Below are positions 2,213 to 49,346 of a DNA stretch of 64,000 nucleotides, one piece after another; within the stretch, counting starts at the first letter, position 1, and every line of letters starts with the position of its first letter. Made by a program: the position numbers and the translations under genes. The notes below the pieces were generated by a model, which saw only the letters and a list, made by a program, of their open reading frames with translations, was not told where the DNA came from and searched no databases. Source of the stretch: an uncultured Lentisphaeraceae bacterium (GTDB lineage Bacteria > Verrucomicrobiota > Kiritimatiellia > RFP12 > UBA1067); NCBI GenBank assembly GCA_964386385.1, contig CAYLRN010000004.1, forward strand, positions 50,054 to 114,053, in the 5' to 3' direction.

Positions 2213-2860
2213 TCATTCGTCAAAGAAGCCGTCACGCTCCATTCGCCGAAGGAGCTCAGCCCAATGCTCTTCCGTCATCTCGTTTGCATGAGTCGCCGGC
2301 AGACCCGTGACCGGCATGACAAGAACAAACGGCGCCCATGTAATGGTTGTCAGGGCGCTTGACAGCCGATACGTCCTCTTCAACCCCTTCCTGTCGGACG
2401 CCTCGACGTAAAGCGTATAGACGTCATCCCCCCAGCATGGGACAATCGTCCACGTGAAACCGGAAAGCGCCGCGGCGAAAAGGCTCAGGCCGTTCCATGA
2501 ATTCTGCTGCATGATGTCCATGCGGATGTCGTATTCGCGATTCGCCTCATTGGCAAAACGGCGAATCTCCGTAGTTCTGTGTGAAAACGCCCTTCTGAAC
2601 TGCGAAATCGCCACGCTTTCGTCCTGTGGTCCAACCCATGCTCCCTTCAATTCCGTGGCGTCGTAGACGTCCTTGTCAAAGTCTGCGCTCGTGGAACACC
2701 GGCTTGTCCGGCGAAAACTGTACGCGATGCTCTTTGGAGTCCTGCCATCTCCGGAAGCCGCAGAAGACATGGTGAATTTAGGGGCAATCGTGGAAATGCA
2801 GCCTGAACTCAGCATGATCGCCGCACAGACGGCCGCAATGCAAAATGGATTGTCTTTCAT
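2213..2860 (-). CDS. hypothetical lipoprotein
   Basis: 215-aa ORF with a lipobox-like N-terminus MKDNPFCIAAVCAAIMLSSGC. Its start overlaps the stop of the upstream gene. Confidence 0.6.
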   Translation of the reverse strand: MKDNPFCIAAVCAAIMLSSGCISTIAPKFTMSSAASGDGRTPKSIAYSFRRTSRCSTSADFDKDVYDATELKGAWVGPQDESVAISQFRRAFSHRTTEIRRFANEANREYDIRMDIMQQNSWNGLSLFAAALSGFTWTIVPCWGDDVYTLYVEASDRKGLKRTYRLSSALTTITWAPFVLVMPVTGLPATHANEMTEEHWAELLRRMERDGFFDE

Positions 2861-3417
2861 CTTTCAACTCCGGTGGAGGAACGTTCGGCGACCGGAATCC
2901 GGGAAACCGTCGCCTTTCTGTTGGTGGGCTGCGGCGGCAGTCGAGGAGACGACCACGGTAATGCGGCAAGCCTCTTTCCTTCGGGGGAATCCTGCGCAAC
3001 AGAGCGGACGACCCTGTCATGCTCGTCATAGACCACATAGTAGACGTATTCGGGATAGTCGGCGTTCATCATCTCGATTGGAGTTCCTATGAACTCCCAC
3101 AGGAAAAGCGTCAGGTCGTCGCACAGGCAATGCGCCACGACACGAAGTATCTTCCATCTCATGCGAATGCCGTCGACAAACTGAATCTGCTCAACGTACT
3201 CTTTCCCATCGGCGCTCATGCCAACCGCGACGGGATGCCCATAGATTTCATCGATTTCCCGCTGCGTCTTGCCGGGGACAATGCCATCTGGAGGACGCGC
3301 AAGCGGAAGGCGCGCGGACATGAAGATTGAACATCCCGAAACAAGCAATGCCAGCGCAGACATCGCGAATGGCAATCCAAAACCAGGCCTCACATTCAAT
3401 TCCTTTCCTTTCAACAT
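2857..3417 (-). CDS. hypothetical lipoprotein
   Basis: ORF 2857..3504 trimmed to ATG 3417 (MLKGKELNV...FAMSALALLVSGCS). AAGGA RBS upstream. The longer start would include the promoter and its A11 tract. Confidence 0.55.
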   Translation of the reverse strand: MLKGKELNVRPGFGLPFAMSALALLVSGCSIFMSARLPLARPPDGIVPGKTQREIDEIYGHPVAVGMSADGKEYVEQIQFVDGIRMRWKILRVVAHCLCDDLTLFLWEFIGTPIEMMNADYPEYVYYVVYDEHDRVVRSVAQDSPEGKRLAALPWSSPRLPPQPTNRKATVSRIPVAERSSTGVER

Positions 3418-3453
3418 CCTTGGTCCCAGTGGGGGTTTAATGAAAACAGCCTC

Positions 3454-3482
3454 ATAATAGTTTTTTTTTTTCGCAGTGTCAA
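3454..3482 (-). promoter_or_regulatory. sigma70-like promoter with an A11 tract in the spacer
   Basis: Minus strand reads TTGACA (3482..3477), then CTGCG-A11-C (17 nt), then TATTAT (3459..3454). ATG at 3417. Confidence 0.55.
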
Positions 3483-3733: not shown

Positions 3734-5617
3734 ATGGCCCGCATGGAACGTCGACTGAAAATACCGTACGGCATCAAGGACTTCAAGCGCATCCGCGAAG
3801 AGGGCTACTGCTACGTCGACAAGACGGCGTACGTCCGGCGGATGGAGGAGCGCGACAGCTTCGTCTTCTTCGCGCGCCCCAGGCGCATGGGCAAGTCCCT
3901 CTTCGTCGAGACGCTCCGCCGCTACTACGACGTCAACGAAAAGGGCAACTTCAGGAAACTGTTCGGCGGGCTTGACATCGGCGAGACCCCCACCGAGAAC
4001 GCGAACAGATATCTTGTGCTTGCGCTTGACTTTTCGCTGGTCGCCGCCAGTTCCGAGCGAACCCTCGAGCAGGCGTTCGATGACTACATGGGCGTCTGCC
4101 TCGACCTCTTCTTCGACCGGTATCCCTCATGCTATCCGCAGGAGAGACGTCCTGATTTCGCCGCGCTTCCTCCGGAGGCGAAATTCGCCTACCTCTCGCA
4201 GACCGCAAAGGAGCGCGGGGCGCAGATCTACCTGATAATCGACGAATACGACAACTTCACGAACACGATGCTGCGCAGCGAGGCGAACAGGGACTACCGC
4301 GCCGTCACGCACGGCGCCGGGTTCTACCGCGGCTGGTTCAAGAGGTTCAAGGAGGCCTGCTCGCGCATATTCATGACGGGCGTATCGCCCGTCACGATGG
4401 ACGACCTCACGAGCGGCTTCAACATCGCCGCCAACCTCACGCAGGACGAGGACTTCAACGCGATGGCCGGCTTCTCCGAGGAGGAGGTCGTGAAGATGTA
4501 CTCAGACTTCAAGGGCACTGGCCGTTTCACGGAAGGAGACCCCGCCGAGATCGTGCGGTCGATCAAGCCGTGGTACGACGGCTACTGCTTCGCGACGGCC
4601 TGCATCGGGAAGGAGTGCGTGTTCAACAGCGACATGGCGCTATACTACCTGAAGTCGCTCGTCGCCAAGGGCCGGCCGCCGGAGAACATGGTGGACGCCA
4701 ACATCAGGACCGACTACGAAAAGCTGAAGATAATCGCCGAGATCCAGCGGCGGCAAGGCCACTGCGCGGACGCAATGCAAAACGCTGATGGCAAAGGTGG
4801 CACGATGGCAGACGCATATGCCACTGCGGAAGCCAACGGCGGCGCGGGAAAGAACGCCTCCGAAAATGCCAACGACGACATGGAGGAAAGCATGGGCGTG
4901 CTGCCAGTCACGGAGCAGCTGGCGGCGACGGGCGAAATCTCCTTCGACCTCGTGGAGAGCTTTCCGGCGGACAAAATCTCCGACCTCGCGAACTTCCACT
5001 CGCTCTTCCACTACTACGGAATCGTGTCCATGCAGAGCAGGCGCAAGGGCAGCACGGTGTTCAGAATACCCAACGTCTGCGTCCGCCGCCAGCTCTTCGA
5101 CTATCTCCGCGATTCCTACCACAGGACGCGGACGCCGGACTGGATCGAGTGGTCGCATCTCGCATCCGCGTTCGCCTACGACGGCAAATACGAGCCGTTC
5201 CTCACGCGCCTCGCGCGGGACTACGCCGAGACAACGCCGGTTCGCGGCGGCCTCCAGGGCGAGATCCGCGTGCAGGGCTACATGCAGGCGGAGTTCGGAC
5301 ACCTCAAGTTCTATCTCCTCGCGCCGGAAATGGAACTTGCGCGCGGCTTCTGCGACTTCCGCCTGTTTCCCGAGCGCGTCCACTACGGCGACGCCTCGCA
5401 CAGCTACCTGATCGAACTGAAGTACGCGAAGGCGGAGGCTTCGGACGAGGACATGGCCGGCCTGGTCGCGGAGGCGAGGGCGCAGCTTGCGAGATACCGC
5501 GCCGACCGCTCCGTCCCGTCCCTCGCGCGCGGCACGACCCTGCACCAGATCGTCTACGTCTTCCGCGGGACCCGATTGCATGCTCTTGAACAAATCAGCT
5601 GCGAGGCAATGGCTTAA
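3734..5617 (+). CDS. predicted AAA-ATPase-like protein with C-terminal PD-(D/E)XK-like region (DUF1703-type family)
   Basis: Track ORF starts at 3545, but its first 63 codons are translated REP hairpins. ATG 3734 gives MARMERRLKIPYGIKDFKRIREEGYCYVDKTAYV, the family-typical N-terminus. C-terminal HSYLIELKYAK segment. Confidence 0.7.
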   Translation: MARMERRLKIPYGIKDFKRIREEGYCYVDKTAYVRRMEERDSFVFFARPRRMGKSLFVETLRRYYDVNEKGNFRKLFGGLDIGETPTENANRYLVLALDFSLVAASSERTLEQAFDDYMGVCLDLFFDRYPSCYPQERRPDFAALPPEAKFAYLSQTAKERGAQIYLIIDEYDNFTNTMLRSEANRDYRAVTHGAGFYRGWFKRFKEACSRIFMTGVSPVTMDDLTSGFNIAANLTQDEDFNAMAGFSEEEVVKMYSDFKGTGRFTEGDPAEIVRSIKPWYDGYCFATACIGKECVFNSDMALYYLKSLVAKGRPPENMVDANIRTDYEKLKIIAEIQRRQGHCADAMQNADGKGGTMADAYATAEANGGAGKNASENANDDMEESMGVLPVTEQLAATGEISFDLVESFPADKISDLANFHSLFHYYGIVSMQSRRKGSTVFRIPNVCVRRQLFDYLRDSYHRTRTPDWIEWSHLASAFAYDGKYEPFLTRLARDYAETTPVRGGLQGEIRVQGYMQAEFGHLKFYLLAPEMELARGFCDFRLFPERVHYGDASHSYLIELKYAKAEASDEDMAGLVAEARAQLARYRADRSVPSLARGTTLHQIVYVFRGTRLHALEQISCEAMA

Positions 5618-5664
5618 GGGAGGGGAACTTTGCCACCCGCAGAGATGGAGAGAGGGAGTTTCAC

Positions 5665-5766
5665 CGGCAGGGCGCGATGTCCTGTCGCGCCGTTCCGTAT
5701 CGGCGGCGGGGCGAGACGCCCCGCCCTACCTGATGTGGAGTCCCCATGGGAGGGACGCGCTACCGC
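5665..5766. repeat. REP-like hairpin cluster
   Basis: cggcagggcgcgatgtcctgtcgcgcc, cggcggcggggcgagacgccccgccctacc, gggagggacgcgc. Confidence 0.7.
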
Positions 5767-5770
5767 TGGA

Positions 5771-8203
5771 TCACCATTTGGCGTATGGGAGGGGCGGGAA
5801 CGCATTGGGCGTGGCGGGCGGCGCGACCGCCCGCGGCGTTCCGTTCGTACGGCGCGCGTCCTCGGCCTCGGAAATCTCCGCCAAGGTGCGCTTGACGGCC
5901 GCGGAGCCGGGCGCAAGCGTCCGCGCCTTTTCCGCCGTCGCGCGCGCCTCGTCAAGGCGTCCCAGCGCCATTCGGCACATCGCCAGGTTGTTGAGGATTG
6001 CCGCGTCGTCCGGCTGCAGTTCAAGGCATCGTATAAAGCGCTCTTCGGCCTGTGCGTAATGCCCCTGCATGACATAGCTCATGGCCAGTGCGAAATTCGC
6101 CTCAGGGTTGTTCGGCGCCGCGGAGACGATCTGCTCGGCGTAGAACCTGGCGCTCGCGAAGTCCGCGCGCACGAGCGCAAGATGCAGGGCCTCCCGCGGC
6201 GCCACGCGGCGGAGCGTGGAGAGCTGGACTTCGCGCAGCGCCCGCTGGATGTTCCGGATTGCGCCGTTCTTCCGGTCGAGGCCGTCGGACCAGGCGATTT
6301 CCGCCTTGGCCGCATCGGCCCGGCCCATGACGTCCAGGCGGTCCGCCCGCGTCCGCGCCATGCGCGCCAGACGCCACTGGGCTGTCTGAAGCAGGTCATC
6401 CACCAGGCGGTCTGCGCTCGGACGGTCCCCATGCGTCGCATAGCAGGCGAGAATCCCTTCGCCAAGCGCGCGAGCGCGCGCAATCGACTCCGCCATCTTC
6501 GCCTCGTCGTCCGAAACGCGCGCAAGCGTCCCCCAGCACGGCGGCAGCGGCTTCTGGTCGTACTGCCAGACCTCGAAGCCAAGCTGCACTCCGCTCCTGG
6601 CAAGGAGCTCCGGCCGGTCGCGCACCCAGGTGCGCAGCAGGGTCGGCGCGCCCTGACGCGCCGCCAGAGCGTTTTCGCCGTCCGGGACATGGCTCTTGAC
6701 GAGGCTCAATTCAAGCGGACTCATTCCCGCCATGAACGAGAACGGCCACAGCGTCCGCCCCCGCGCCGCGCAGAGGAGGCGAAAGGCATCGTCGAAACGT
6801 CCGTCCGTGAACAGGTACTCGCACCCTTCCGCGTCCGCAAGCACCGCGTCGGCATATTTTCCCAGAATGCGCATCTTCTCGCGCACGGCGGCAGCGCCCC
6901 GGTCGCCGACGAGCGCGGCGAGAAGTCCCGCGACTGCGACGAGCGTCCAGAAGACCGCGCGGCGGTAGCGTCCGCGAATCGTCCACGCAGGCGAACGGGA
7001 TTCGACATCCTCTTCGTAGTTGCCGTTCTCCGCAATGTCCCGCGTCGCGACGATCGGACGCCAGACGTGGCTGCGGCAGAACGCATATACGCCCAGCACT
7101 GCAAGCGACATCAGAAGGATGAACGCCGCAACGCCCGAGAGGAGCATCTGGAAGAGGTCGGACGAGACAAGCGGACGCTCCCCCCACGACCATATCCATA
7201 GCGGCGAGACGACAGACAGCTGGGAAAGAGCGACGAGCGCGCCCGCAAAGAAGCAGAACCCCGTGCGGTACGGAAGGTAGACCTCCTCGTCCGTAGCGCC
7301 GCGCATCATGAACGCCAGCAGGACGGCAGGGAGGACGAGCATGACGAACGCGGAAATCCATCCGAGCGTCCCGGCGGCGTCCGTCCACTGCCGAAGATAG
7401 TCGCGCGCCGCGTCGACGACGAGACGGTCGGGGGCGAATCCGCCCGCCGTGAACCCGTCGTGCCACGACAGCAACGCCACGTTCAGGCATGTGGCCGCGA
7501 TGAAGCCCGCCAGCACGATGAACGAGACCTTCCACGTCACGACGCCCATGCACGTTCGCATCGCCATCGTCGGAGAGCAGAGCACCAGATCGCGCACGAC
7601 AAGTCCGTACAGCGTGAACCCGACCGCCAGTACGAAAATCGCCCACGGCGTCTCCGCGCAGAGAACGCCAGTCAGCAGCGCGCCCGCGTAGAGCGCACCG
7701 TCCGCCTCGGCGAGATGGAACTTCACGAAGAGCCGCAGCGCGAAGAGCAGCATGAAGAACATCAGGAAGTCCGGAGCGAACGACTGCGCACCGCGCCATA
7801 CCGGCTCGGACGCGACGAGCGCGATGGTCGCCAGCGCGGACGCCATGCGCTTCACCGCAAGCCGCCGGCGGCGATGCCGCTCGTAGTCGCAGACGAACAC
7901 CGTCAGCGCGTCCATGCAGAGCAGATGGAACGTCGCCGCCACGCCGCCAAGCACGGCAAACCCCAGTCCACGCGCCGCCCACATGGCGAACTCGACGCCG
8001 CCGAAATGGCAGACGGCGGACATCAGCCCGCGCCACACGCCCGGGAAGAGACTGCCCGCAGGACGCAGAAACGCCGCCTCCGCAAACGGGCGCCACACGG
8101 CCGGATGAAGCCCCGGATAGGCCAGCAGAGCCGCCGCACCCACCGCCAGCAAGGCCAGCAGCGCCGCAAGCGGCCATTCGCGACTCTTCGTCACATCAGT
8201 CAT
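5771..8203 (-). CDS. polytopic membrane protein with C-terminal TPR repeats (DUF2723/glycosyltransferase-like)
   Basis: ORF 5771..8425 trimmed to ATG 8203 (MTDVTKSREWPLAALLALLAV). Many hydrophobic helices, then TPR-like ...YVMQGHYAQAEERFIRCLELQPDDAAILNNLAMCRMALGRLDEA. Confidence 0.7.
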   Translation of the reverse strand: MTDVTKSREWPLAALLALLAVGAAALLAYPGLHPAVWRPFAEAAFLRPAGSLFPGVWRGLMSAVCHFGGVEFAMWAARGLGFAVLGGVAATFHLLCMDALTVFVCDYERHRRRRLAVKRMASALATIALVASEPVWRGAQSFAPDFLMFFMLLFALRLFVKFHLAEADGALYAGALLTGVLCAETPWAIFVLAVGFTLYGLVVRDLVLCSPTMAMRTCMGVVTWKVSFIVLAGFIAATCLNVALLSWHDGFTAGGFAPDRLVVDAARDYLRQWTDAAGTLGWISAFVMLVLPAVLLAFMMRGATDEEVYLPYRTGFCFFAGALVALSQLSVVSPLWIWSWGERPLVSSDLFQMLLSGVAAFILLMSLAVLGVYAFCRSHVWRPIVATRDIAENGNYEEDVESRSPAWTIRGRYRRAVFWTLVAVAGLLAALVGDRGAAAVREKMRILGKYADAVLADAEGCEYLFTDGRFDDAFRLLCAARGRTLWPFSFMAGMSPLELSLVKSHVPDGENALAARQGAPTLLRTWVRDRPELLARSGVQLGFEVWQYDQKPLPPCWGTLARVSDDEAKMAESIARARALGEGILACYATHGDRPSADRLVDDLLQTAQWRLARMARTRADRLDVMGRADAAKAEIAWSDGLDRKNGAIRNIQRALREVQLSTLRRVAPREALHLALVRADFASARFYAEQIVSAAPNNPEANFALAMSYVMQGHYAQAEERFIRCLELQPDDAAILNNLAMCRMALGRLDEARATAEKARTLAPGSAAVKRTLAEISEAEDARRTNGTPRAVAPPATPNAFPPLPYAKW

Positions 8204-8226
8204 CGGACAGCCCCCTCCCCACGCCG

Positions 8227-8799
8227 TCAGGCGTTCTTCCTGCGGCGCAGCGCAAGCAGCCCCGCGCCAACGAGGACGAGAAGTCCCGACGTCGGCTCCG
8301 GCACGGCGGAGAACGACCCCGCCGTCGTCACCCACGAGTTGATGTAGCCCGTCCCGATGCCGGATATCGGTCCCAGCGACTTCTGCACTCCAAGGTCGCT
8401 GTAGCTCAGCCCCGTCGTCGTCCACGACGCCTCATACGATGCGTTGCCGAGCTCGATATAGAAGTAATAGGACGACGAACCGCCCGAAAGCGCCGAAAGG
8501 ACGCCCTCCGGCAACTGCGACAGGTCTGTGCGAAACGTCCACGTGCCATCCGTCCATCCCATGTTCCCCACGCCGCTGAACGCCGAACCGTCGTCCGTTA
8601 TGAGCGTGTTCTTTATCGCAGTCGTGGGCGTCGTCGAAGACGCGCCGCCCTCGCGGTAGGAGACCCACGCCATCTGTGGCTCCTCGGCGTCCACCGACCA
8701 CGGAGTCCCCTCCGTGAAGTCGACCGTCCAGTACAGCCATTCGGCCTGCGCGGCGCACGCGCACAGCAGCGCCACAATGAACATCATGCGTTTCATCAT
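8227..8799 (-). CDS. PEP-CTERM sorting-domain secreted protein
   Basis: Signal peptide MMKRMMFIVALLCACAAQA. C-terminal VPEPTSGLLVLVGAGLLALRRRK. Confidence 0.8.
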   Translation of the reverse strand: MMKRMMFIVALLCACAAQAEWLYWTVDFTEGTPWSVDAEEPQMAWVSYREGGASSTTPTTAIKNTLITDDGSAFSGVGNMGWTDGTWTFRTDLSQLPEGVLSALSGGSSSYYFYIELGNASYEASWTTTGLSYSDLGVQKSLGPISGIGTGYINSWVTTAGSFSAVPEPTSGLLVLVGAGLLALRRRKNA

Positions 8800-8815
8800 T
8801 TTCCTAGCCCCCTTT

Positions 8816-9619
8816 TCAGTTGGACGTTCCGAACGCCGGCGCCTTGAATGTCAGCGTCGCCGAAACAGCGTTCCCCGCGGCGCGCACGTACCAGCAGGCC
8901 ATGCCGCGAGCGACAGTACACGCCTCGCTCCACGCGCCGCCCGAACGGTAGCGCCATTTCTTCGTGGACGGATTCCACTCGTAGACCTTGTCCAGTTCGC
9001 CGTCCGCCTTGAACGTGCGAATCTCGTCGCCCTTCAGCGCAACCGTCGACCAGTCGACGTCCGAGCCGCCGTTCAGGTCCCAGTCGCCAGTCGCGGGGAA
9101 GGGACGCGAGATCAGCGTCGAAGTCGCGTACTTCGCGCCGTTTTCGTCCTCCGTCGCGCCGGCGATCGTCACGGAGACCCCCGCCGCCGGGACCTGCCCG
9201 TGGACATAGACCGGCCTGTCGGCCGCGTCGGCAGCCCGGTTCAGCCAGACGCCGCGCCCCATGTCGACCGCAGTCGTCTCCGGATCGGGGCGCGTATCGT
9301 CCGCGCCGAGAACGCCCGCCCACGCGCCGTTCACGTACTTGAACGACACGTACTTCTGCGCCTTCGAATCGTAGACCCACACGCGGTCCTCTGCGGTCAG
9401 CGTCGCGGGGCAGACAAGGTCGGCAACGCGAATCGGCGAGTCCGTCTTCCCATACCCGGAATAGACGACGCCGAGCGGAGTCATTCCGGACACGCCCGCC
9501 ATGCGCGTGACGCCAACCACGTTCTCCGAATCCATCTCCACCACGGGAGCGGAGAGGACGGAGAGGCATATTCCGGCGAAGAGCGGGAAAACGCCGCGTG
9601 AAAGATGCAGTCTCTTCAT
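8816..9619 (-). CDS. secreted hypothetical protein
   Basis: ORF 8816..9637. ATG 9619 (MKRLHLSRGVFPLFAGICLSVLSA) has a GGGAG RBS and a signal-like N-terminus. Confidence 0.6.
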   Translation of the reverse strand: MKRLHLSRGVFPLFAGICLSVLSAPVVEMDSENVVGVTRMAGVSGMTPLGVVYSGYGKTDSPIRVADLVCPATLTAEDRVWVYDSKAQKYVSFKYVNGAWAGVLGADDTRPDPETTAVDMGRGVWLNRAADAADRPVYVHGQVPAAGVSVTIAGATEDENGAKYATSTLISRPFPATGDWDLNGGSDVDWSTVALKGDEIRTFKADGELDKVYEWNPSTKKWRYRSGGAWSEACTVARGMACWYVRAAGNAVSATLTFKAPAFGTSN

Positions 9620-9633
9620 TTCGAACAACTCCC

Positions 9634-10452
9634 TCATTTCATCGGATTGCGGATGACCCTGAAGAACCGGCCTGTCGCCTGCCTGTCGCGAGGAATGCGC
9701 AGTTCGATCGTCCCGCCCGCAGCGGACGTTCCGCTCACAGGCGACTGCGCCGCCGCGCCGGAGGACGCAACCGCCGCCTCCGGCGTCTCGCCCGCCGCCG
9801 CGTTGTACACGACATTGTCGGCAGTCGACGAAACGGTCAGCACGACGTAGTCGTCCTCCACGCGGATGCCGGTCACGACCGGGTTCTCAACGACCTCGTC
9901 GTCAAGCGTGCTCAGCAGAAACGGCTTGCCAGCGCTCGTGCCTCCGAACGGATTGCCGTTGGACGCGATGAAGCCAGCCACTTCGGCGAAGCCCTGCACG
10001 GACAGCGAGCCCGCAAGCGTGGCGTTCGTCGTCACGGACGCGACGTTCCCCGCCTCGTCGTACGAGACCGTCGGCGCGGCGAATCTCCGCGTGTCGAGGA
10101 GATAGAGCGCAAAACGCCCGCCCTCCTCGAACGACTTGTGACTGCGCTCGTCGAACGTGAACGCCCTCTCTTCGAGATAGCCGTCCTTCGCCGCCGCCCT
10201 GCACCAGAGGACTTCGCAGCTTTCGGGCGAAACGGGAGTGCCGTCGACGGTGAAGCCGTCGAACGTCCATCCGCGCCTCTGCCACGTGAGCGCGTACCAC
10301 TCGCCGTCCATCACGACAGCGCCGTCCGCGTAATGGTCTTCTGGAACGGTGAAGAACGAGAAGAACATCGCGTCCTCTCCCGCCCCTGCGGCTGAAAGAG
10401 CCGCGATGGCGCAGAGGAGGCCGCCGCACATGATTTTCGATAACATCTTCAT
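9634..10452 (-). CDS. secreted hypothetical protein
   Basis: ORF 9634..10512 trimmed to ATG 10452 (MKMLSKIMCGGLLCAIAALSAAGAG). Confidence 0.6.
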   Translation of the reverse strand: MKMLSKIMCGGLLCAIAALSAAGAGEDAMFFSFFTVPEDHYADGAVVMDGEWYALTWQRRGWTFDGFTVDGTPVSPESCEVLWCRAAAKDGYLEERAFTFDERSHKSFEEGGRFALYLLDTRRFAAPTVSYDEAGNVASVTTNATLAGSLSVQGFAEVAGFIASNGNPFGGTSAGKPFLLSTLDDEVVENPVVTGIRVEDDYVVLTVSSTADNVVYNAAAGETPEAAVASSGAAAQSPVSGTSAAGGTIELRIPRDRQATGRFFRVIRNPMK

Positions 10453-10462
10453 GCCGTCACAC

Positions 10463-11845
10463 TCACTTTCTCTCCAGCACGGCCGCCGGACGGTAGAAGC
10501 GCTGCCGCGCATCGGCCGCCTCGTCCGTGAACTCCGCCTCGTCCTGCGGATCGCCCACCGCCGTGAACGCCGCCGTCTCCGAATCCGCCCTGTACAGACG
10601 GTACTTCAGCGCAAGGTCGCCGAACGTCGTCTGCGGCGGGTTCATCCCGGTCACGCCCACCGACGCCGCGCCGGTCTCCGCGTCGACCTTCACGACCTTC
10701 GCCAGCAGCGCTGCGGACGGATCTGCGGGGTTCCACCCCAGCACGTAGTTCTGCCAGTAGGGATGGCCGTTCTTCGCGGGCGTCTTCAGGTTGTCGGACG
10801 CATCCGCAGTCTCGTCGGGAATGTCCTCGGACACGTTCGCCGCGTACCACTCCGCCGACACCGGCAGAACGGCGTCGTCGCCGAACAGCACTCCGAGCAG
10901 GTCGGAATCGAGATGGAACTTCGCCGTCTCCGTCGCGCCGCCGGACACGTGGGTGAACGTGTACGTGCCGCGCACAAGGCCGTTCGTGTTCCAGTTCCAT
11001 GAGCCGTCCGCCGTCGGAACGGCGTTCTGGTCCTTGCCGTCACGCGAAATCGTCACGGATTCCGTCAGACCCGGCCAGATGACGTTGAACGTAGTAGAGG
11101 CCGCCCCCATCTGCCGGACGCCGTTCGCATCCATCGCGTTGTCGATCGTCGCCGCCCCATCTCCGGGCAGTGCCACTTCCGCAAGCGCGGTCACGAGGTA
11201 CGAGGCCGTATAGGTCTGTCCGTTCCACGCGAGCGTGACGTCGTAGGCGCCGGGCATGAGCGGGTCCGTCGCCCAGTCCAGCGTCTCCGCATCGGACGAA
11301 ATTTCGCCGGCCGAGACGGAACCGTTCACACCGGACACGGTGACGGTGACTTCGCTCTCGACCGTCTCGCCCCACGCAGCCGGCAGCACGAGCGTCTCGC
11401 TCTCGCCGTCGGCGACGTAGGTCTTGCCCGACTCGGAAGTCGTTCCGTTGTCAATCGCAAGCGTCCCCCACTCGGCGACGGCTGCGGCCGCGACGAGGAA
11501 GGTGGCGGTGTACGTCTCGTCTCCCGCCGTAAGCGTGAGCGCGTACGTGCCGGGCAGAAGCGGACCCGTCTCCCAGTCGTAGGATTCGCCGCCCGCCGGA
11601 AGCGCGATGTCGCTCCCAACGCCCGCGACCTTCAGGGTGGGCGCAGCGGCGTTTCCGCCCCAGGCAGCCGGCAGGACGAGCGACTCGGAATCGAGCGCGG
11701 TTTTCGTCGCGGCGTTGTCCAGTACGACGCCGGCGGCGGTCGAAGCCTCGGCCAGCGCGCCCTCCACGCCGTCGGCCAGAAGGCCTCCGGCGAGGAGAAC
11801 GCCCGCGAGCGCGCAGACGCGCCGCAATGCATTCATCGGTTTCAT
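10463..11845 (-). CDS. secreted protein with three ~110-aa Ig-like tandem modules
   Basis: Signal MKPMNALRRVCALAGVLLAGGLLA. Repeated LVLPAAWG...Y(D/N)W(E/A)T.PL.PG.Y..TL....TYTA.(F/Y)LV modules. Confidence 0.65.
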   Translation of the reverse strand: MKPMNALRRVCALAGVLLAGGLLADGVEGALAEASTAAGVVLDNAATKTALDSESLVLPAAWGGNAAAPTLKVAGVGSDIALPAGGESYDWETGPLLPGTYALTLTAGDETYTATFLVAAAAVAEWGTLAIDNGTTSESGKTYVADGESETLVLPAAWGETVESEVTVTVSGVNGSVSAGEISSDAETLDWATDPLMPGAYDVTLAWNGQTYTASYLVTALAEVALPGDGAATIDNAMDANGVRQMGAASTTFNVIWPGLTESVTISRDGKDQNAVPTADGSWNWNTNGLVRGTYTFTHVSGGATETAKFHLDSDLLGVLFGDDAVLPVSAEWYAANVSEDIPDETADASDNLKTPAKNGHPYWQNYVLGWNPADPSAALLAKVVKVDAETGAASVGVTGMNPPQTTFGDLALKYRLYRADSETAAFTAVGDPQDEAEFTDEAADARQRFYRPAAVLERK

Positions 11846-11867
11846 CGGCTGATCTCCGCGTCCCCGA

Positions 11868-14800
11868 TCACTTCGCGTACACCCTGAACGTCACGCCGGA
11901 CTGGCGGGCGGGCACGGCGGCGGTCGAATCCCAGACCACGTGGACAGTCTTCGCGGTCTCCTGCGCGGCCATCGTGAACGAGCCGTCGGACACGTTCACC
12001 TCGCTCTGCGTTCCGTCCTCGTTGACCAGCTTCGCCGTCGTCATCGGAAGGCGCACCGTCTCCGTGCCGCTGGCGTACTCGGCCACGATGAAGAGGCGCA
12101 CGGACTTGTTCGACTTCAACTCGAACGTGACGTCCACGAGGCCGTTCCACGGATAGCGCTGACGCGCCGCGACACTGCCGAGCGTGACAGGGGCGTCAAC
12201 GACCTTGTACACGCCGTCCTGCTCGACGAGCTTCGACCATTCCGCAACCTTCGCCCACGAGGCATCCGCCTCCGCGAACGGGGCGCTGTCGTACTCGCCG
12301 CCCGTAATGGTGAGCGTACCGCCGCCAGTGTTGCGTCCGTAGATCGTCGTGACCATGTCCGTGTCAACCGTCCACTCTTCGTCGCCCACGGCGCTTCTGC
12401 TGCCGTAGGCCATGTTTCCGTCCACGGTTGCGGACACCGTCGTGCCGGGCGCGTTGGCCGTCGCGAAGACAGAGCCGACAATGTCCCTGCGGGGCGCGCC
12501 GTTCTTTATCTCCGTGCAGACGATGACGTTGTTGCGCAGCACCGCGTTCTCGACGGTCATCTTCAGTCCGCCGTCGGAAGCGGCGTACGCGACAAGTCCG
12601 GCCGTAGCGCCTGCGCCGACGATCGTCGAATTCAGCAGCGAGCAGTCCTTCATGACGACCTCGCCCGTGTAGCAGATGGAGATGAACGCGGACGTGAAGC
12701 AGTCGGCCGTCGCGTCCAGCGGACTGCGGACCTTCGCGCCGTCGATGACGACGCCGTCAAGCGTGACGGACTTCAGCCAGAACGCATTGTCGAGAACAAG
12801 AGCCGTCTTCTCTCCCGCGCCGACGACATTCGCGTCCTTGAACGTCAGATTCCTCATCGCGAGAACCGTGCCCTTCGCCTCGTTCTTCGGATTGGTGAAC
12901 AGCATTCCCGGCAGTCCCGTGACCGTCTTGCCGTTGCCGTTTACGACGAGCGTCTTGTCGGCGGTGAGTTCGATTGCCTCCCACGTGTCGCCGTCGGTGA
13001 ACGTGATGTCGTCTACGATCTCCACGGGGATGCCGTCGTTCGCCGCGAGCGCGGCCTTGAGCGCCGCCGCGAGGTCGTTGTACTCCGTCTCGCCGACCTT
13101 CGCGACGACGTGCATCTGCACGCCGTACGTGCCGTCGCCGTTCGCCGTCACTTCGTAGCCCTTCGCGCAGTAGTCCGCATCGACCGCCGCCGTGAACGTG
13201 CCGCCCGTGAGGTTGAACTCGTTCCTGGCCGCCGCCGCGTCGCCGGTCGAGGCGATCGTGAACGTGCCGCGGATTCCCGTGCCGTTCGCGGAGACCGTCG
13301 CCTCGTCGTCGATGATGTCGCGGGTGATGAGGCCCTTCGCGCAGTTCTTCACAGTGACGTCCTCAAGCGTGACGACGCCGGAGTTGTCGCTGTACGAGTT
13401 CTTCGAGACGAGCACCGCCGCCTTCTCCGTAAGGCCGTCGAAGGTCGCGCCCTTGATCGTCACGGCGGGCGTTTCGTCCTTGCCCACCGAATAGAGCTTC
13501 ACGCCGCGCTTGCCGGTGAACGTTCCGCCGTTCACCTCGGCCTCGCCGCCGTGCACCCAGAGGTTGTAGCCGTTGTTGCCGCCGGACGTCTCGTTGCAGA
13601 ACGTGCAGTCGTTGTAGAACGTCTTTCCGTACTGGTTGTTGCCGGTTCCGTTCGGGAACGTGCAGCGCATGTAGGTGACGGAGTTCTCCGCCGCGTTCAC
13701 GTTGCGCAGCCACGTCGTGAAGTTGCTCGCGCCGAAGTTGATGTCCTGCACCCAGCCGGAGAGATTCGGCTTCGTGAGCGTGAGGTCGGTGAACTCGACG
13801 TCCACGTCGTACGACTGCTCCGCAAGAAGCGCAACCCGCTTCGTCAGGCAGATTTCCGCGTTTTCGGACGTTCCGACGAACTTCACCAGCTTCACGCCCG
13901 CGAGGCCAGACTTCAGGATCTGCACCCAGCCCTCGCCGTCGACCATCGCCTTGCCGCCGATCTCGTACGTCACGACGCCGTCGGCGTCCGGCTCCGCCGC
14001 CGCGAACGCCGCTTCAAGCGACGCATATCCGACGCCGTTCGCCTTGATGAAGTATTCGACCTTCCAGCCATCCGCATCGCTGCCCGCGAGAGCACAGCCT
14101 TCCGCGACAGTCGCCCAGGAGGCGTCCTCGGCGAACGGACGGTTGTCGTACGTGCCGCCAGTGACGGTGAGCGTGCCGCCGGAGGCATTGCGTCCGTAGA
14201 TTGTCGTCACTTCCGCGTCCTTCGTCAGCGTCTCCGCGTCATACGCGCTCGCGCTGCCGTAGACGGAGTTGTCCGTCATGGTGGCGGACACCGAAGCTCC
14301 GCCCGCGCCGATCGTTCCCACGACCGCGCCGACGATGTCCGTGCGGGGCTTTCCATCCTCGATCTCCGTGCCGACGATCGTGTTGCCGGTCACCTCGCAG
14401 TTCTCGACGACGAGCGCCACAGCTTCGTCAGGGGTCGCCGTCGTGAACGCCACCAGTCCGCCGACCGATCCGCAGCTGACGAGCGTGGAGTTGCGGATGG
14501 CGCAGTTGCGGAGCGTCACCGTCTTCTTGCCGCCGGCGGACACGCCGTTGCACCATGCGATGAAGCCCGCGACGTAGCTGTCCGTTCCGGCGCGGACGTC
14601 CGCGCCCTCGATGACGACGCCGTCGAGCGTGACGTCAATGCCGTAGGCGGCGGGGAGGACCACTGCCGCACCGGACTTGCCGTCCGACGTATAGGAATCC
14701 TTCGGGTTGACGAACTTCAGGTCCGTGACCGTCAGGCTGCCGTTCCACTTGTTGACCGACAGGTCATGCGAGCCGAGCAGGCTTCCCTGCATATTGGATA

Positions 14801-16118
14801 TCGTCTTGCCGTTGCCGTGGACGACGAGCGTTTCGCCGTTGCTGAACGGTACGGGCGTCCACGTGCCGCCGTCGGCGAACGTGACGTCGTCGACGATCTC
14901 CACGGGGACGCCGTCGTTCGCCGCGAGCGCGGCCTTGAGCGCGTCCGCGAGGTCGTTGTACTCCGCATCGCCGACCTTCGCGACGACATGCTTCTTCACG
15001 CCGTACGTGCCGTCGTCGTTCTTGGACAACAGGTAGCCGTCCGCAAGGCCGTCCACCGAATCCGTGGTGAAACTCGCCGCGGAATCGGCAGGAACGATCG
15101 CGCCTACGTAGGACGCCGAAGACGTGCGCACGACATCGCCGTCGATTACGCCGCCGGCAACCGAGACGGAGACTCCATCACCCGCAACTTCGTCCTGCTC
15201 GTCAGTGACGTAGACCGCCGCGACGCCTTTAAGCGTACCGCCGGAAATCGTGACGTCGATCCTGCGGTTCGTCGTGTGCTGCGAGACTGCAACGGCGGCG
15301 CCTATGACCGAAGGTCCGTTATCAAAGGCCTTCGCCGTGAGTTCAGCCGCAGTCGCGACAATCGTACCACCCTCGACATTGAGCGTGCCTGCACGGACTT
15401 CAACGCCCGTGACGCCGGAGACATAAGATCCCTCCTTGATTGTCAACGTGCCAAGTCCTGGGAAATAGACTCCCTCGGAGTTCTTCGCCACCGTCCTGGA
15501 GCCGTTCTCAAGTGTGACGTTAAATGGGACTTCGGCAGAGCCGACACCGGAAATCGCGCCCGCCGCCTCCACGGGCGAGGCAATCTCAACCGTGCCGAAG
15601 ACATCAAGCGAAATGCCGCCCTTGTTCTTGCCGTTGGCCACGATGCCGTTGCACCTGTCCGTCTTGATGGAGACGTCCGCGCCGACCTTGAGCGAGATGC
15701 CGGACTCGTTTTCCATTGTATCTCCAAGGAATACGACGCACTGCGTCACGCCGACGTTCTCGCCACTGGCGGAAATCGTCCCTTTGCCCGTAAAGGTCAC
15801 GTCGCCCGACAGAATCCAGAGCGGAAAGCCGCATGTCGCGTTGAGGTCATGTCCGTTGAGGTCAAGGGTAAGGTCGTCCGTAATCTTGACGAGCGAACCG
15901 AGCGAAACGCCATCGACCAACGTCACCGTGTCGCCCTTTGCGGTGGCCGCAATCGCCGCCTCAAGCGTCTCGTATTCCGCATCGCCCACCTTTGCGACCG
16001 ACGCGGCCGATGCCGTGCCGGCTGCAAAGAACGCCGCCGCGCCAAGCGCGGCAACCACCCACTTCTGCGCGCGCCGCAGCGCGGCGCACACTTTACTACC
16101 TCGTAATTGCGATTTCAT
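11868..16118 (-). CDS. giant secreted beta-helix-type surface protein with an internally duplicated ~300-aa module
   Basis: ORF 11868..16160 trimmed to ATG 16118 (MKSQLRGSK...AAFFAAGTASA; AAGGA RBS). Gly/Thr/Val-rich repeats. Duplicated HVVAKVG(D/E)(A/T)EYNDLA.ALKAALAANDG.PVEIVDD modules. Confidence 0.75.
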   Translation of the reverse strand: MKSQLRGSKVCAALRRAQKWVVAALGAAAFFAAGTASAASVAKVGDAEYETLEAAIAATAKGDTVTLVDGVSLGSLVKITDDLTLDLNGHDLNATCGFPLWILSGDVTFTGKGTISASGENVGVTQCVVFLGDTMENESGISLKVGADVSIKTDRCNGIVANGKNKGGISLDVFGTVEIASPVEAAGAISGVGSAEVPFNVTLENGSRTVAKNSEGVYFPGLGTLTIKEGSYVSGVTGVEVRAGTLNVEGGTIVATAAELTAKAFDNGPSVIGAAVAVSQHTTNRRIDVTISGGTLKGVAAVYVTDEQDEVAGDGVSVSVAGGVIDGDVVRTSSASYVGAIVPADSAASFTTDSVDGLADGYLLSKNDDGTYGVKKHVVAKVGDAEYNDLADALKAALAANDGVPVEIVDDVTFADGGTWTPVPFSNGETLVVHGNGKTISNMQGSLLGSHDLSVNKWNGSLTVTDLKFVNPKDSYTSDGKSGAAVVLPAAYGIDVTLDGVVIEGADVRAGTDSYVAGFIAWCNGVSAGGKKTVTLRNCAIRNSTLVSCGSVGGLVAFTTATPDEAVALVVENCEVTGNTIVGTEIEDGKPRTDIVGAVVGTIGAGGASVSATMTDNSVYGSASAYDAETLTKDAEVTTIYGRNASGGTLTVTGGTYDNRPFAEDASWATVAEGCALAGSDADGWKVEYFIKANGVGYASLEAAFAAAEPDADGVVTYEIGGKAMVDGEGWVQILKSGLAGVKLVKFVGTSENAEICLTKRVALLAEQSYDVDVEFTDLTLTKPNLSGWVQDINFGASNFTTWLRNVNAAENSVTYMRCTFPNGTGNNQYGKTFYNDCTFCNETSGGNNGYNLWVHGGEAEVNGGTFTGKRGVKLYSVGKDETPAVTIKGATFDGLTEKAAVLVSKNSYSDNSGVVTLEDVTVKNCAKGLITRDIIDDEATVSANGTGIRGTFTIASTGDAAAARNEFNLTGGTFTAAVDADYCAKGYEVTANGDGTYGVQMHVVAKVGETEYNDLAAALKAALAANDGIPVEIVDDITFTDGDTWEAIELTADKTLVVNGNGKTVTGLPGMLFTNPKNEAKGTVLAMRNLTFKDANVVGAGEKTALVLDNAFWLKSVTLDGVVIDGAKVRSPLDATADCFTSAFISICYTGEVVMKDCSLLNSTIVGAGATAGLVAYAASDGGLKMTVENAVLRNNVIVCTEIKNGAPRRDIVGSVFATANAPGTTVSATVDGNMAYGSRSAVGDEEWTVDTDMVTTIYGRNTGGGTLTITGGEYDSAPFAEADASWAKVAEWSKLVEQDGVYKVVDAPVTLGSVAARQRYPWNGLVDVTFELKSNKSVRLFIVAEYASGTETVRLPMTTAKLVNEDGTQSEVNVSDGSFTMAAQETAKTVHVVWDSTAAVPARQSGVTFRVYAK

Positions 16119-16170
16119 ACGTCCAGTTCCTTGTTTTACGAATCTGCCTTCTTTGAGCATTCGGGCGCAA

Positions 16171-16200
16171 ATGATATCGTTTTTTTTTTTTCCTCGTCAA
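16171..16200 (-). promoter_or_regulatory. sigma70-like promoter with an A12 tract in the spacer
   Basis: Minus strand reads TTGACG (16200..16195), then AGG-A12-CGA (18 nt), then TATCAT (16176..16171). About 46 nt upstream of ATG 16118. Confidence 0.55.
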
Positions 16201-16310
16201 CACCTCCGTTGACAAATAATTTGCTTTTTTTTTTCTTCAAATTCATAGCCGAAAACCGATGTTTTCACGCAGGTATGTACAAAAGTTTTTTTTGCGAGTC
16301 CATGCATTTC

Positions 16311-16416
16311 GGGGAGGGGCGCGCTCCTGCGCGACCATGGCAGGAACGGCGGACGCGCGGGAGCGCGTCCCTCCCGTTGAAAGCGAATGCGGCGGGGCGG
16401 GACGCCCCGCCCTACC
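16311..16416. repeat. REP-like hairpin cluster
   Basis: ggggaggggcgcgctcctgcgcgacc, its inverted partner ggacgcgcgggagcgcgtccctccc, and gcggcggggcgggacgccccgccctacc. Confidence 0.7.
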
Positions 16417-16585
16417 AGATGGCGAAGCAGATTTCCCCTCGCATGGGGACGACGCCTCGCCGCGCCATGCGTCTGCGATTCGGCAAAATAAAATGGGCGG
16501 AACGCCGAAACATACCGTTGTTATTTTGCCGATTAAATGGTAGACTTTGCCGGTGCCGTCCATCCATTTTTAAAGGGGAAGCGAC

Positions 16586-17467
16586 ATGCGTCTACTGTCC
16601 GTCAAAGAATGCGCCGAAAAATGGCAGATATCAGAACGAAGCGTCCGAAACTACTGTTCATTGGGGCGCATCGGCGGAGCTGTCCTTGAAAAAGGCGAGT
16701 GGCGCATTCCGGACGAAGCCGAAAAGCCGCCTCGCAAGAACCGTCTTCGGGTCTTGCCCAAAAGCGTCGGCCAAATTCTAAGGCTTGAGATGAAATCGCG
16801 CGTAAGGGGACGTCTCTACCACCAGGTGCAGGTCGACCTCACCTACAACTCCAACCACATTGAGGGGGGACGGCTTACACATGAGCAGACGCGCTGGATA
16901 TTCGAAACGTCGACGATCGGCGCCGTGGCGGACGACCTGCCGGTCAACGACATCGTTGAAACGGCGAACCATTTCCGCTGCATCGACACGATCATTTCCA
17001 CCTTCACCGACCGCCTCACGGAACCATATGTCAAACGCCTCCATCTCCAATTGAAAAACGGCACTTCGGATGGCAGAAAGCCATGGTTTGCGACGGGCGA
17101 CTACAAGCGTCTCGTGAATTCCGTGAACGACGTCGAAACGACACGTCCTGAAGACGTCCACGACGAGATGAAAGCCCTTCTCGCATGGTATGAATCCGCG
17201 CCGCCGTCCTTTGAACGAATCCTCGACTTCCACGTCCGCTTCGAGACAATACATCCGTTCCAGGATGGAAACGGACGCATCGGACGGCTGCTCATGTTCA
17301 AGGAATGCCTCCGCGCCGACATTCTTCCGTTCATCATCGACGACTCGCTCAAGAGGTTCTACTATCGCGGACTCCACGAATGGCCGAAGGTCAGGGAATA
17401 TCTCCTCGACATCTGCAGGACCGGGCAAGACCGCTTCGCTGCGTTGATGCGCCATTACGGTCTTTGA
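16586..17467 (+). CDS. Fic/DOC-family protein with N-terminal HTH
   Basis: Canonical Fic motif HPFQDGNGRIGR. N-terminal MerR/excisionase-like HTH (LSVKECAEKWQISERSVRNYC). Confidence 0.9.
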   Translation: MRLLSVKECAEKWQISERSVRNYCSLGRIGGAVLEKGEWRIPDEAEKPPRKNRLRVLPKSVGQILRLEMKSRVRGRLYHQVQVDLTYNSNHIEGGRLTHEQTRWIFETSTIGAVADDLPVNDIVETANHFRCIDTIISTFTDRLTEPYVKRLHLQLKNGTSDGRKPWFATGDYKRLVNSVNDVETTRPEDVHDEMKALLAWYESAPPSFERILDFHVRFETIHPFQDGNGRIGRLLMFKECLRADILPFIIDDSLKRFYYRGLHEWPKVREYLLDICRTGQDRFAALMRHYGL

Positions 17468-41638: not shown

Positions 41639-41666
41639 ATTATATCCATTTTTTTTTTCTGCGCAA
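41639..41666 (-). promoter_or_regulatory. sigma70-like promoter with an A10 tract in the spacer
   Basis: Minus strand reads TTGCGC (41666..41661), then AG-A10-TGGA (16 nt), then TATAAT (41644..41639). ATG at 41589. Confidence 0.5.
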
Positions 41667-49153: not shown

Positions 49154-49346
49154 CGCAGTGGCCCTGGAGAACGCTGCGCCACTTTGCGATTTTCCACATT
49201 TCGCCCATTGACATCGGAGAAAAAAAAAATGCAAAAATATATGCCGTGTTTCATGGCGCATTGACGGGCTTTTCCCTGTCCCGCCCTTCCGCCGTGGCAA
49301 CGCATGAAAACGGAGAGCGGAGAATGTGTGGAAAGGTTGTTGAGAC

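Follow-up and report, generated by a model that had tools for sequence, protein, structure and literature searches.

The window, as we call the whole 64,000-nucleotide stretch of DNA analysed here, carries ahead of an operon headed by a gene for a giant exported protein a promoter-like site in which twelve consecutive adenines (A12) lie between the -35 and -10 hexamers. The best explanation, to which taken as a whole we would give somewhat better than an even chance, is that this run forms the spacer of a real primary-sigma promoter predicted to drive the operon from 16118 to at least 8227. Tuning of the promoter through slippage within the tract is the reading we prefer, with moderate confidence. 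A preliminary description of this DNA had treated the site as a special local switch; it is instead one copy of a cassette found at the promoters of about 60 giant exported proteins.

Multi-locus simple-repeat phase variation is known almost only from host-adapted pathogens, and a recent review lists this apparent confinement among the open questions (PMC11868660). The present lineage is uncultured, inhabits gut and rumen, is not a pathogen and belongs to a phylum that has hardly been studied, and it bears the sequence hallmarks of such variation at about 60 promoters. The promoters go with a single family of exported proteins, whose C-terminal tail has not been described before. If expression is governed by the length of the tract, one could tell from metagenomic reads alone whether each surface protein is ON or OFF in natural populations. 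The cassette would then also offer a ready set of tunable promoters in a phylum that has no genetic tools, and the link between cassette and tail would help define the purpose of the tail family. Should the tract be structural instead, it would represent an unusual clade-specific promoter grammar, with a spacer of 15-16 nt that is always A. Our literature searches returned no paper on promoters or homopolymers in Kiritimatiellota.

The promoter-like site and the operon behind it

Direct reading of the minus strand from 16200 to 16171 gives TTGACG-AGG-A12-CGA-TATCAT with an 18-nt spacer, as the preliminary description had stated (Table 1). Consensus scans of 15800-17000 and 5000-16300 return TTGACG-N18-TATCAT alone, which makes it the single sigma-70-like site on either strand of 5000-17000 (~11 kb) and agrees with the earlier claim that the tract lies inside the promoter of the operon. 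The site combines near-consensus hexamers and a spacing within the 16-18 nt range with a gene downstream, in a genome that encodes the primary sigma factor RpoD, the relatives of which all come from uncultured, metagenome-assembled gut or rumen Kiritimatiellia. It also places a homopolymer of slip-prone length (about 8 or more) between -35 and -10 ahead of a surface or secreted product, as indicated by the signal peptide and adhesive domain of the first gene and by the PEP-CTERM domain encoded downstream. From these features we infer promoter activity at 16171..16200 and a start site downstream of it, near 16161-16164.

The earlier placement of the promoter ~46 nt upstream of the giant gene holds only when counting from the presumed start site, the -10 hexamer itself ending 52 nt before the ATG at 16118. 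An in-frame ATG is also present at 16160, but it is unlikely to be the true start because a change from A6 to A7 in the 5'UTR of two contigs from a sister lineage breaks the frame. This 5'UTR run (region 16125-16135 of the window; near 2555-2560 in contigs L098 and L099) lies directly upstream of the ribosome-binding site and is A6 in eight sister contigs and A7 in two; besides shifting the upstream ATG out of frame, the change alters the spacing between start site and ribosome-binding site.

Table 1. Features of the promoter region, the operon and comparable promoters. Coordinates refer to the window unless a genome is named.
Feature	Position	Strand	Remarks
Putative core promoter TTGACG-N18-TATCAT	16171..16200	(-)	10/12 hexamer positions match the sigma-70 consensus
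-35 hexamer TTGACG	16195..16200	(-)	identical in 10/10 sister-lineage contigs
A12 spacer tract (plus strand: T12)	16180..16191	(-)	read from the sequence
-10 hexamer TATCAT	16171..16176	(-)	kept in sister lineage
Presumed 5'UTR with ribosome-binding site AAGGAA	16119..16170	(-)	start expected near 16161-16164
AT-rich UP-element-like block GCAAATTATTTGTCAA	16209..16224	(-)	9-24 nt upstream of -35; identical in window and sister lineage
Distal A10 tract (plus strand: T run)	16225..16234	(-)	24 nt upstream of -35
A8 run, no promoter context	16286..16293	(-)	A6 plus substitutions in sister lineage
Gene 1, 1416 aa, signal peptide, pectate-lyase-like adhesive (beta-helix) domain	11868..16118	(-)	PF20585, E 3.6e-09
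Gene 2, 460 aa, no function assigned	10463..11845	(-)	
Gene 3, 244 aa, no function assigned	9634..10368	(-)	
Gene 4, 267 aa, no function assigned	8816..9619	(-)	
Gene 5, 189 aa, PEP-CTERM sorting domain	8227..8796	(-)	TIGR02595, E 3e-06
Gene 6, 810-aa TPR protein, probably same transcription unit	5771..8203	(-)	24-nt gap, no promoter or terminator between
Class member TTGACA-CTGCG-A11-C-TATTAT	3454..3482	(-)	precedes 186-aa lipoprotein
Class member TTGCGC-AG-A10-TGGA-TATAAT	41639..41666	(-)	precedes 880-aa protein ending GTMVILR (38950-41589)
Class member, extended -10 type, TTGACA-TCGGAG-A10-TGC-AAAAAT	49208..49238	(+)	precedes 382-aa gene
G-tract design copies	G000 C2:161801-161814, C2:164400-164412, C4:4765-4777, C16:63486-63504, C2:248729-248739		outside the window
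1485-aa orthologue promoter TTGACA-GG-A10-CAGA-TATAAT	G000		spacer 16
1485-aa orthologue promoter TTGACT-G-A10-TACAT-TATAAT	G007		spacer 16
1485-aa orthologue promoter TTGACG-GAAT-A10-TGCAT-TATAAT	G010		spacer 19
1485-aa orthologue promoter TTGACG-GCGTTCATGCGGGTTGG-TAAAAT	G001		spacer 17
1485-aa orthologue promoter TTGACT-GGACGGGCGAACTTTGG-GATAAT	G014		spacer 17
1485-aa orthologue promoter, A tract absent	G006, G013		spacer 16
1485-aa orthologue promoter, A tract absent	G008		spacer 18

Gaps along the gene row measure 15-95 nt, and down to 5771 the row shows no further promoter-like site and no convincing terminator. The operon (~10 kb) therefore probably continues through the TPR gene to 5771; the single promoter-like site ahead of the genes stands as first described, and the end previously set at 8227 probably does not. 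On the other side of the intergenic region a divergent HTH-Fic gene starts at 16586. Homologues of this gene (16586-17467) at about 60% identity run into the thousands, and some are labelled Clostridia, which points to a widely shared, possibly mobile neighbour of the operon. A 573-aa open reading frame was rejected as a spurious GC-rich frame. The exact sequence of the 1416-aa product of the first gene is already on record, and it has no match among solved structures.

The intergenic sequence upstream of the -35 hexamer holds two further A runs. The preliminary description had reported both correctly as runs (the T8 run at 16286..16293 is A8 on the minus strand), and it had assigned the A10 at 16225..16234 to a similar promoter context, TTGAAG-N16-TATTTG. 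That this tract marks a second, upstream promoter is in our judgment very improbable: the block is kept in the sister lineage with variable tract length, which counts in favour of the idea, but TATTTG is without the near-invariant final T and the consensus scan does not report the site, for which reasons we do not regard the proposed context as credible. The other available pairing, TTGAAG-N13-AATTAT, has an impossible spacer, and a Bacteroidetes-type -7 motif was ruled out, given that TATTTG does not match TAnnTTTG. The location of the tract (about -45 to -70) and the adjoining AAATTATTTGT, the core of the AT-rich block at 16209..16224, better fit an UP-like element with an upstream A-tract, for which the sabA model (PMC4081817) may be compared, and the distal A10 together with the conserved block looks like such an arrangement. 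In a sabA-type layout the tract would lie within about 20 nt upstream of the -35 hexamer and separate UP-like A-boxes from the core promoter; here the distal A10 begins 24 nt upstream of that hexamer. The UP-like block sits between the distal A10 and the -35 hexamer, and the length of the distal tract would therefore not shift that block. AAATTATTTGT agrees at 9/11 positions with AAAWWTWTTTT, which we take to be the consensus of the UP distal subsite; its UP-like role is presumed on this basis. Further upstream, 16330-16425 contains GC-rich REP-like hairpin units, of which GGGCGGGGCGTCCCGCCCC occurs 84 times and GCGCAGGAGCGCG 134 times in the genome; these units are absent from the corresponding intergenic region of the sister lineage.

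A recurrent A-tract cassette and the proteins it precedes

The genome from which the window derives (G000; 3.36 Mb in 68 contigs, 64.8% GC) has a bimodal spectrum of A/T runs. Counts drop as expected through lengths 5 (1419), 6 (373), 7 (70) and 8 (20), then rise at 9 (53) and 10 (55), with 8, 5 and 1 runs at lengths 11, 12 and 13. Runs of at least 9 number 122 genome-wide, versus 0.9 expected under independent-base composition. Our catalogue places 68 of the 122 in a -35/-10 context, and another 13 are T-tails of hairpin terminators. Lengths of 9-10 account for 88% of these tracts, and A12 for 5/122.

The promoter-associated tracts share a common design, present in about 60 copies located 30-110 nt upstream of long open reading frames: cgaTTGAC(a/g), GG or AG (2-3 nt), A9-10, (c/t)(a/g)(a/g)A (3-4 nt), TATAAT and TGT. 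Conservation extends past the hexamers (cga...GG...CAGA...TGT), and 32 of the 58 perfect TTGACN...TAWAAT pairs in the genome carry an A run of at least 8 in the spacer. Formally, we define the class as TTGAC(N), 2-3 nt (or 4-6 nt where the -10 is of the extended TGn type), an A tract of at least 9 on the non-template strand, 3-4 nt and TAnnnT; TTGACG-AGG-A12-CGA-TATCAT conforms to this definition and is among the 68 catalogued sites. Because the flanks are fixed, spacer length equals tract length plus 6, so that A9, A10, A11 and A12 yield spacers of 15, 16, 17 and 18 nt. The modal spacer of the class is 15-16, as opposed to 17-18 in tract-free promoters of the genome, and the A12 promoter is therefore two above the mode and at the long edge of its class; it had been described as only one nucleotide over an optimum of 17. 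A sub-class has a longer left flank (GGGGAG; 4-6 nt), an extended -10 (TGn) and a spacer of 18-19, and in both the short-flank and the extended -10 forms the gap between tract and -10 hexamer is held at 3-4 nt.

A second homopolymer design was observed in the same genome, TTGAC followed by G11 to G19 and (c/t)(a/g)T(a/t)TTGTAAAcTA, with lengths that range far more widely than in the A class; a 206-aa protein resembling an ECF sigma factor is encoded downstream of one copy.

To relate the cassette to its downstream genes we used crude gene calls (1994 frames filtered by third-position GC), scoring a tract when a run of at least 8 lay within 220 nt upstream. By this measure tracts precede 52/171 signal-peptide proteins of at least 700 aa, versus 17 of about 1800 others (odds ratio 46, p=2e-44). 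The association is closer still with a C-terminal tail present in about 70 large exported proteins, in which four or five hydrophobic residues and an Arg or Lys, typically G-T-L-L-I-F-R, form the free C-terminus: 51 of the 70 hydrophobic-Arg-tail proteins have a tract, versus 18/1909 others (p=2e-69), and the 19 without one are mostly start-codon miscalls, second genes of operons or cases of a decayed tract. A generic strong-promoter design for housekeeping genes was rejected, since the class is nearly confined to exported giants. The proteins are adhesin-like or lectin-like, with PA14, LamG, BspA-type LRR and PATR domains, and no Pfam or NCBIfam model covers the tail. Cluster look-ups for ten other proteins of the class found no near-identical relatives. 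The first gene of the operon is atypical in this company: it has the cassette, the signal peptide and the large size (1416 aa), but its protein ends in ...GVTFRVYAK and the hydrophobic-Arg/Lys tail is missing. At another cassette, two adjacent open reading frames that follow an A9 promoter (226 and 648 aa; C19:15270 and C19:15993) together correspond to a single 893-aa gene in the related genome G007 (L116), a possible frameshift or pseudogene in G000.

The uniformity of the cassette brings forward a different account, which we consider unlikely but of sufficient weight to follow through the data. According to it, the A-tract does not act as a switch but belongs to a clade-specific type of promoter, in which it serves as a structural or recognition element; strength or regulation would depend on the rigidity and narrow groove of the spacer, or on contacts made with sigma, RNA polymerase or a regulator dedicated to the genes of the exported giants, and length differences between strains would be tolerated or mildly harmful slippage noise. 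Several properties of the class favour this account, namely the fixed distance from tract to -10 in both sub-classes, the narrow length distribution, the flanks conserved beyond the hexamers and the modal spacer of its own. In addition, the non-template strand always carries A (51 versus 0 T), a polarity that mutability alone leaves unexplained and that thus counts against slippage tuning. Polarity and conserved flanks could, on the other hand, stem from a single cassette spreading by duplication or gene conversion, and the near-equal frequency of A9 and A10 within the same flanks, with spacers of 15 and 16 coexisting, is odd for a single optimum.

Tract length among strains and related species

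Related strains were reached through the 90% cluster of the neighbouring Fic protein, one member of which lies on 31 Logan contigs; ten of these (L095-L104) have the same divergent Fic/giant arrangement and constitute the sister lineage referred to above. Its nucleotide identity to the window is 91% over Fic and likewise over the initial 173 nt of the giant gene, the remainder of which is much more diverged, and a 110-nt promoter block is conserved next to a mid-intergenic region that cannot be aligned. The giant gene itself is called at 1388 to 1792 aa in L095-L099, depending on the run, and beyond its first 173 nt is only about 71% identical to the window gene or unalignable; promoter and signal peptide are conserved, and the passenger part behind them is fast-evolving.

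Other routes to the locus were less productive. Looking up the 460-aa gene yielded one Logan contig that terminates within the giant gene, with the promoter not covered, and pattern scans of metagenome contigs for the promoter with a variable tract gave no match. Exact-protein look-ups of the Fic protein, the giant protein and the YrdC-like and DUF1080-like neighbours returned nothing. None of 40 species representatives has an orthologue of the giant gene, which precludes a cross-species comparison at the exact locus; Fic homologues at 81% and 74% identity have a different gene neighbourhood.

The preliminary description had named an invariant tract length across strains as the outcome that would speak against it, and length does vary. 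The orthologous spacer tract is A10 in eight of the ten contigs, A11 in one and A10 minus one flanking G in one, for spacers of 16, 17 and 15 nt as compared with 18 in the window; these lengths come from consensus assemblies of different samples, in which short-read homopolymer calls can be off by one. The distal tract measures 7 in three contigs, 10 in six and 11 in one, and the 5'UTR run 6 or 7. Across 2.39 kb the ten contigs present 64 SNP columns, and all internal indels fall in these three homopolymers. The same tract lengths are found on different SNP backgrounds, and such homoplasy suggests that slippage has occurred repeatedly. Variation of this kind is also seen at a second locus, where homologues of the lipoprotein promoter at 3454-3482 read TTGACG-GGACGAAG-A8/A9/A10-TATACT in three runs, and two other runs have an extra A14 versus at least A18 run directly upstream of the -35 hexamer. 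In contigs L149 (1-18) and L150 (65-78), which carry homologues of the lipoprotein locus 2860-3482, the spacer tract is A8 and this long A run stands six bases ahead of the -35 hexamer; farther upstream L150 carries one more A10, so that tracts are stacked as they are at 16180-16234.

These observations also bear on the notion, which we rate as quite improbable, that the site is promoter-like by sequence only, with the operon transcribed from elsewhere, or that A12 is an assembly artefact for a true tract of A10-11 such as relatives have. Long homopolymers are error-prone in sequencing and assembly. Nevertheless, the site is the lone sigma-70-like one in 11 kb, its 110-nt block is conserved amid an unalignable intergenic region, about 60 sites of the same design stand at similar distances from long open reading frames, and three-base differences (A7 versus A10) recur across independent runs. 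The poly-G/C at contig ends, moreover, suggests Illumina data, for which a two-base consensus error would presumably be unusual. Several contig ends of G000 are poly-G/C, very long runs being seen at C14:72293-72345 (C53, contig end) and C14:21865-21898 (G34), and those at contig ends look like two-colour Illumina artefacts.

Beyond the strain level, the strict cassette pattern identifies 32 sites in G000, 31 in G007, 8 in G014 and 4 in G010; 37 other relatives have 0-2 each, and reversed-pattern controls match nowhere. In G007, G014 and G010 the cassette is again located ahead of tailed signal-peptide giants (9/12 complete open reading frames). Orthologues of a 1485-aa protein allow the promoter to be followed across species (Table 1). 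Distant members of this series use GC-rich 17-nt spacers, from which it follows that the A tract is a derived add-on of the subclade, dispensable for basic promoter function, and this weighs against a structural requirement for it. Once gained, the tract is on this comparison retained (A10 in G000, G007 and G010). Such retention at orthologous promoters of three species favours the structural account and, together with the dominance of A9-10, speaks for a constraint on length and against free switching. The eight cassettes of G014, in contrast, span A9 to A12, six of them with an identical CAGT right flank.

Proposed slippage tuning and its relation to known systems

In the reading we prefer, a stereotyped cassette has been placed before about 60 giant exported adhesin-like or lectin-like protein genes in this gut Kiritimatiellia and a few close relatives. 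Slipped-strand mispairing at replication would add or remove bases of the tract, and each gain or loss would re-set the -35/-10 spacing and the rotational alignment of the hexamers. Sigma-70 promoters are sensitive to this spacing, and transcription would go up or down in heritable, reversible steps, as a rheostat or a phase switch. Since the A12 tract exceeds both the class mode and the usual state of the sister lineage by two bases, the sequenced population probably expresses the operon at a reduced level. The influence of length on output, the rate of switching and any adaptive value are inferences of ours.

Loss of mismatch repair was rejected as a driver, as both mutS and mutL are present; the intact MutS and MutL also count against slippage tuning. 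Mismatch repair is likewise intact in Neisseria and Haemophilus. The structural account overlaps in part with slippage tuning, since slippage would still modulate output if length matters, and it draws support from Ehrlichia, where AT-rich spacers alter promoter strength (PMC5066175). As a caution, the promoter T-tract of M. agalactiae proved not to be the cause of variation (PMC2268961). More broadly, we tentatively advance, as a possibility to which we give less than an even chance, that a gut Kiritimatiellia subclade swapped GC-rich spacers for the A-tract cassette at about 60 tail-tagged giant genes, each thereby acquiring its own slippage-driven dial. This would be the largest promoter-repeat 'phasome' described, and it would reside in a high-GC, mismatch-repair-proficient commensal; the A-only polarity may in that case mean sequence-specific reading by the polymerase or by a regulator of the family.

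Among the closest precedents is Mycoplasma hyorhinis vlp, along with M. arthritidis maa2 and M. mycoides vmm, for which spacer indels switch transcription ON/OFF as related at second hand in PMC2268961, citing Citti and Wise 1995. These systems resemble the present one in having a homopolymer between -35 and -10 of surface-protein genes and several members with a tract each. They differ in involving a handful of lipoprotein genes of a low-GC, wall-less pathogen, whereas here about 60 promoters share one cassette in a Gram-negative-type PVC gut commensal of 65% GC, lengths cluster tightly at 9-10 and switching is a prediction.

In H. pylori, T/A tracts of at least 9 lie at the -35 hexamer or close to it in 25 genes. 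In nine cases the tract is between -35 and -10, and 15/25 of the genes encode outer-membrane proteins; tract length varies by strain, and output is graded because length changes how UP-like elements line up with the core promoter (PMC4081817). This sabA-type rheostat is similar to the present case in its many loci, and the distal A10 and UP-like block of the window may resemble its layout. In H. pylori, however, tracts are of T and A, at varied positions and with widely varying lengths of 9-16, whereas the cassette is conserved and its tract is always A at one position. H. pylori is moreover without MutS1/MutL, in contrast to this genome.

In N. meningitidis, PorA expression varies with the length of a promoter poly-G tract (PMC3639595). 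The likeness is that an outer-membrane protein gene has in its sigma-70 promoter a homopolymer whose length changes expression; unlike the cassette, the Neisseria examples involve G/C tracts at single genes of a pathogen. The porA poly-G is located between the hexamers and yields three expression levels, and the poly-C tract of opc acts likewise.

Chlamydiae belong to the same PVC superphylum, and Tan et al. are said to have described in 1998 a 'spacer A/T region' of the Chlamydia rRNA P1 promoter as a determinant of its strength. In the p28-Omp genes of Ehrlichia, spacer composition, and not length alone, changes the transcription of outer-membrane protein genes (PMC5066175). Unlike the cassette, these AT-rich spacers are of mixed A/T in AT-rich genomes, with no pure homopolymer and no length polymorphism. 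Set against these systems, the mechanism itself is of a known kind, and what is new is its host lineage, the uniformity of the cassette, its presence at about 60 loci, its tie to one protein family and its occurrence in a commensal.
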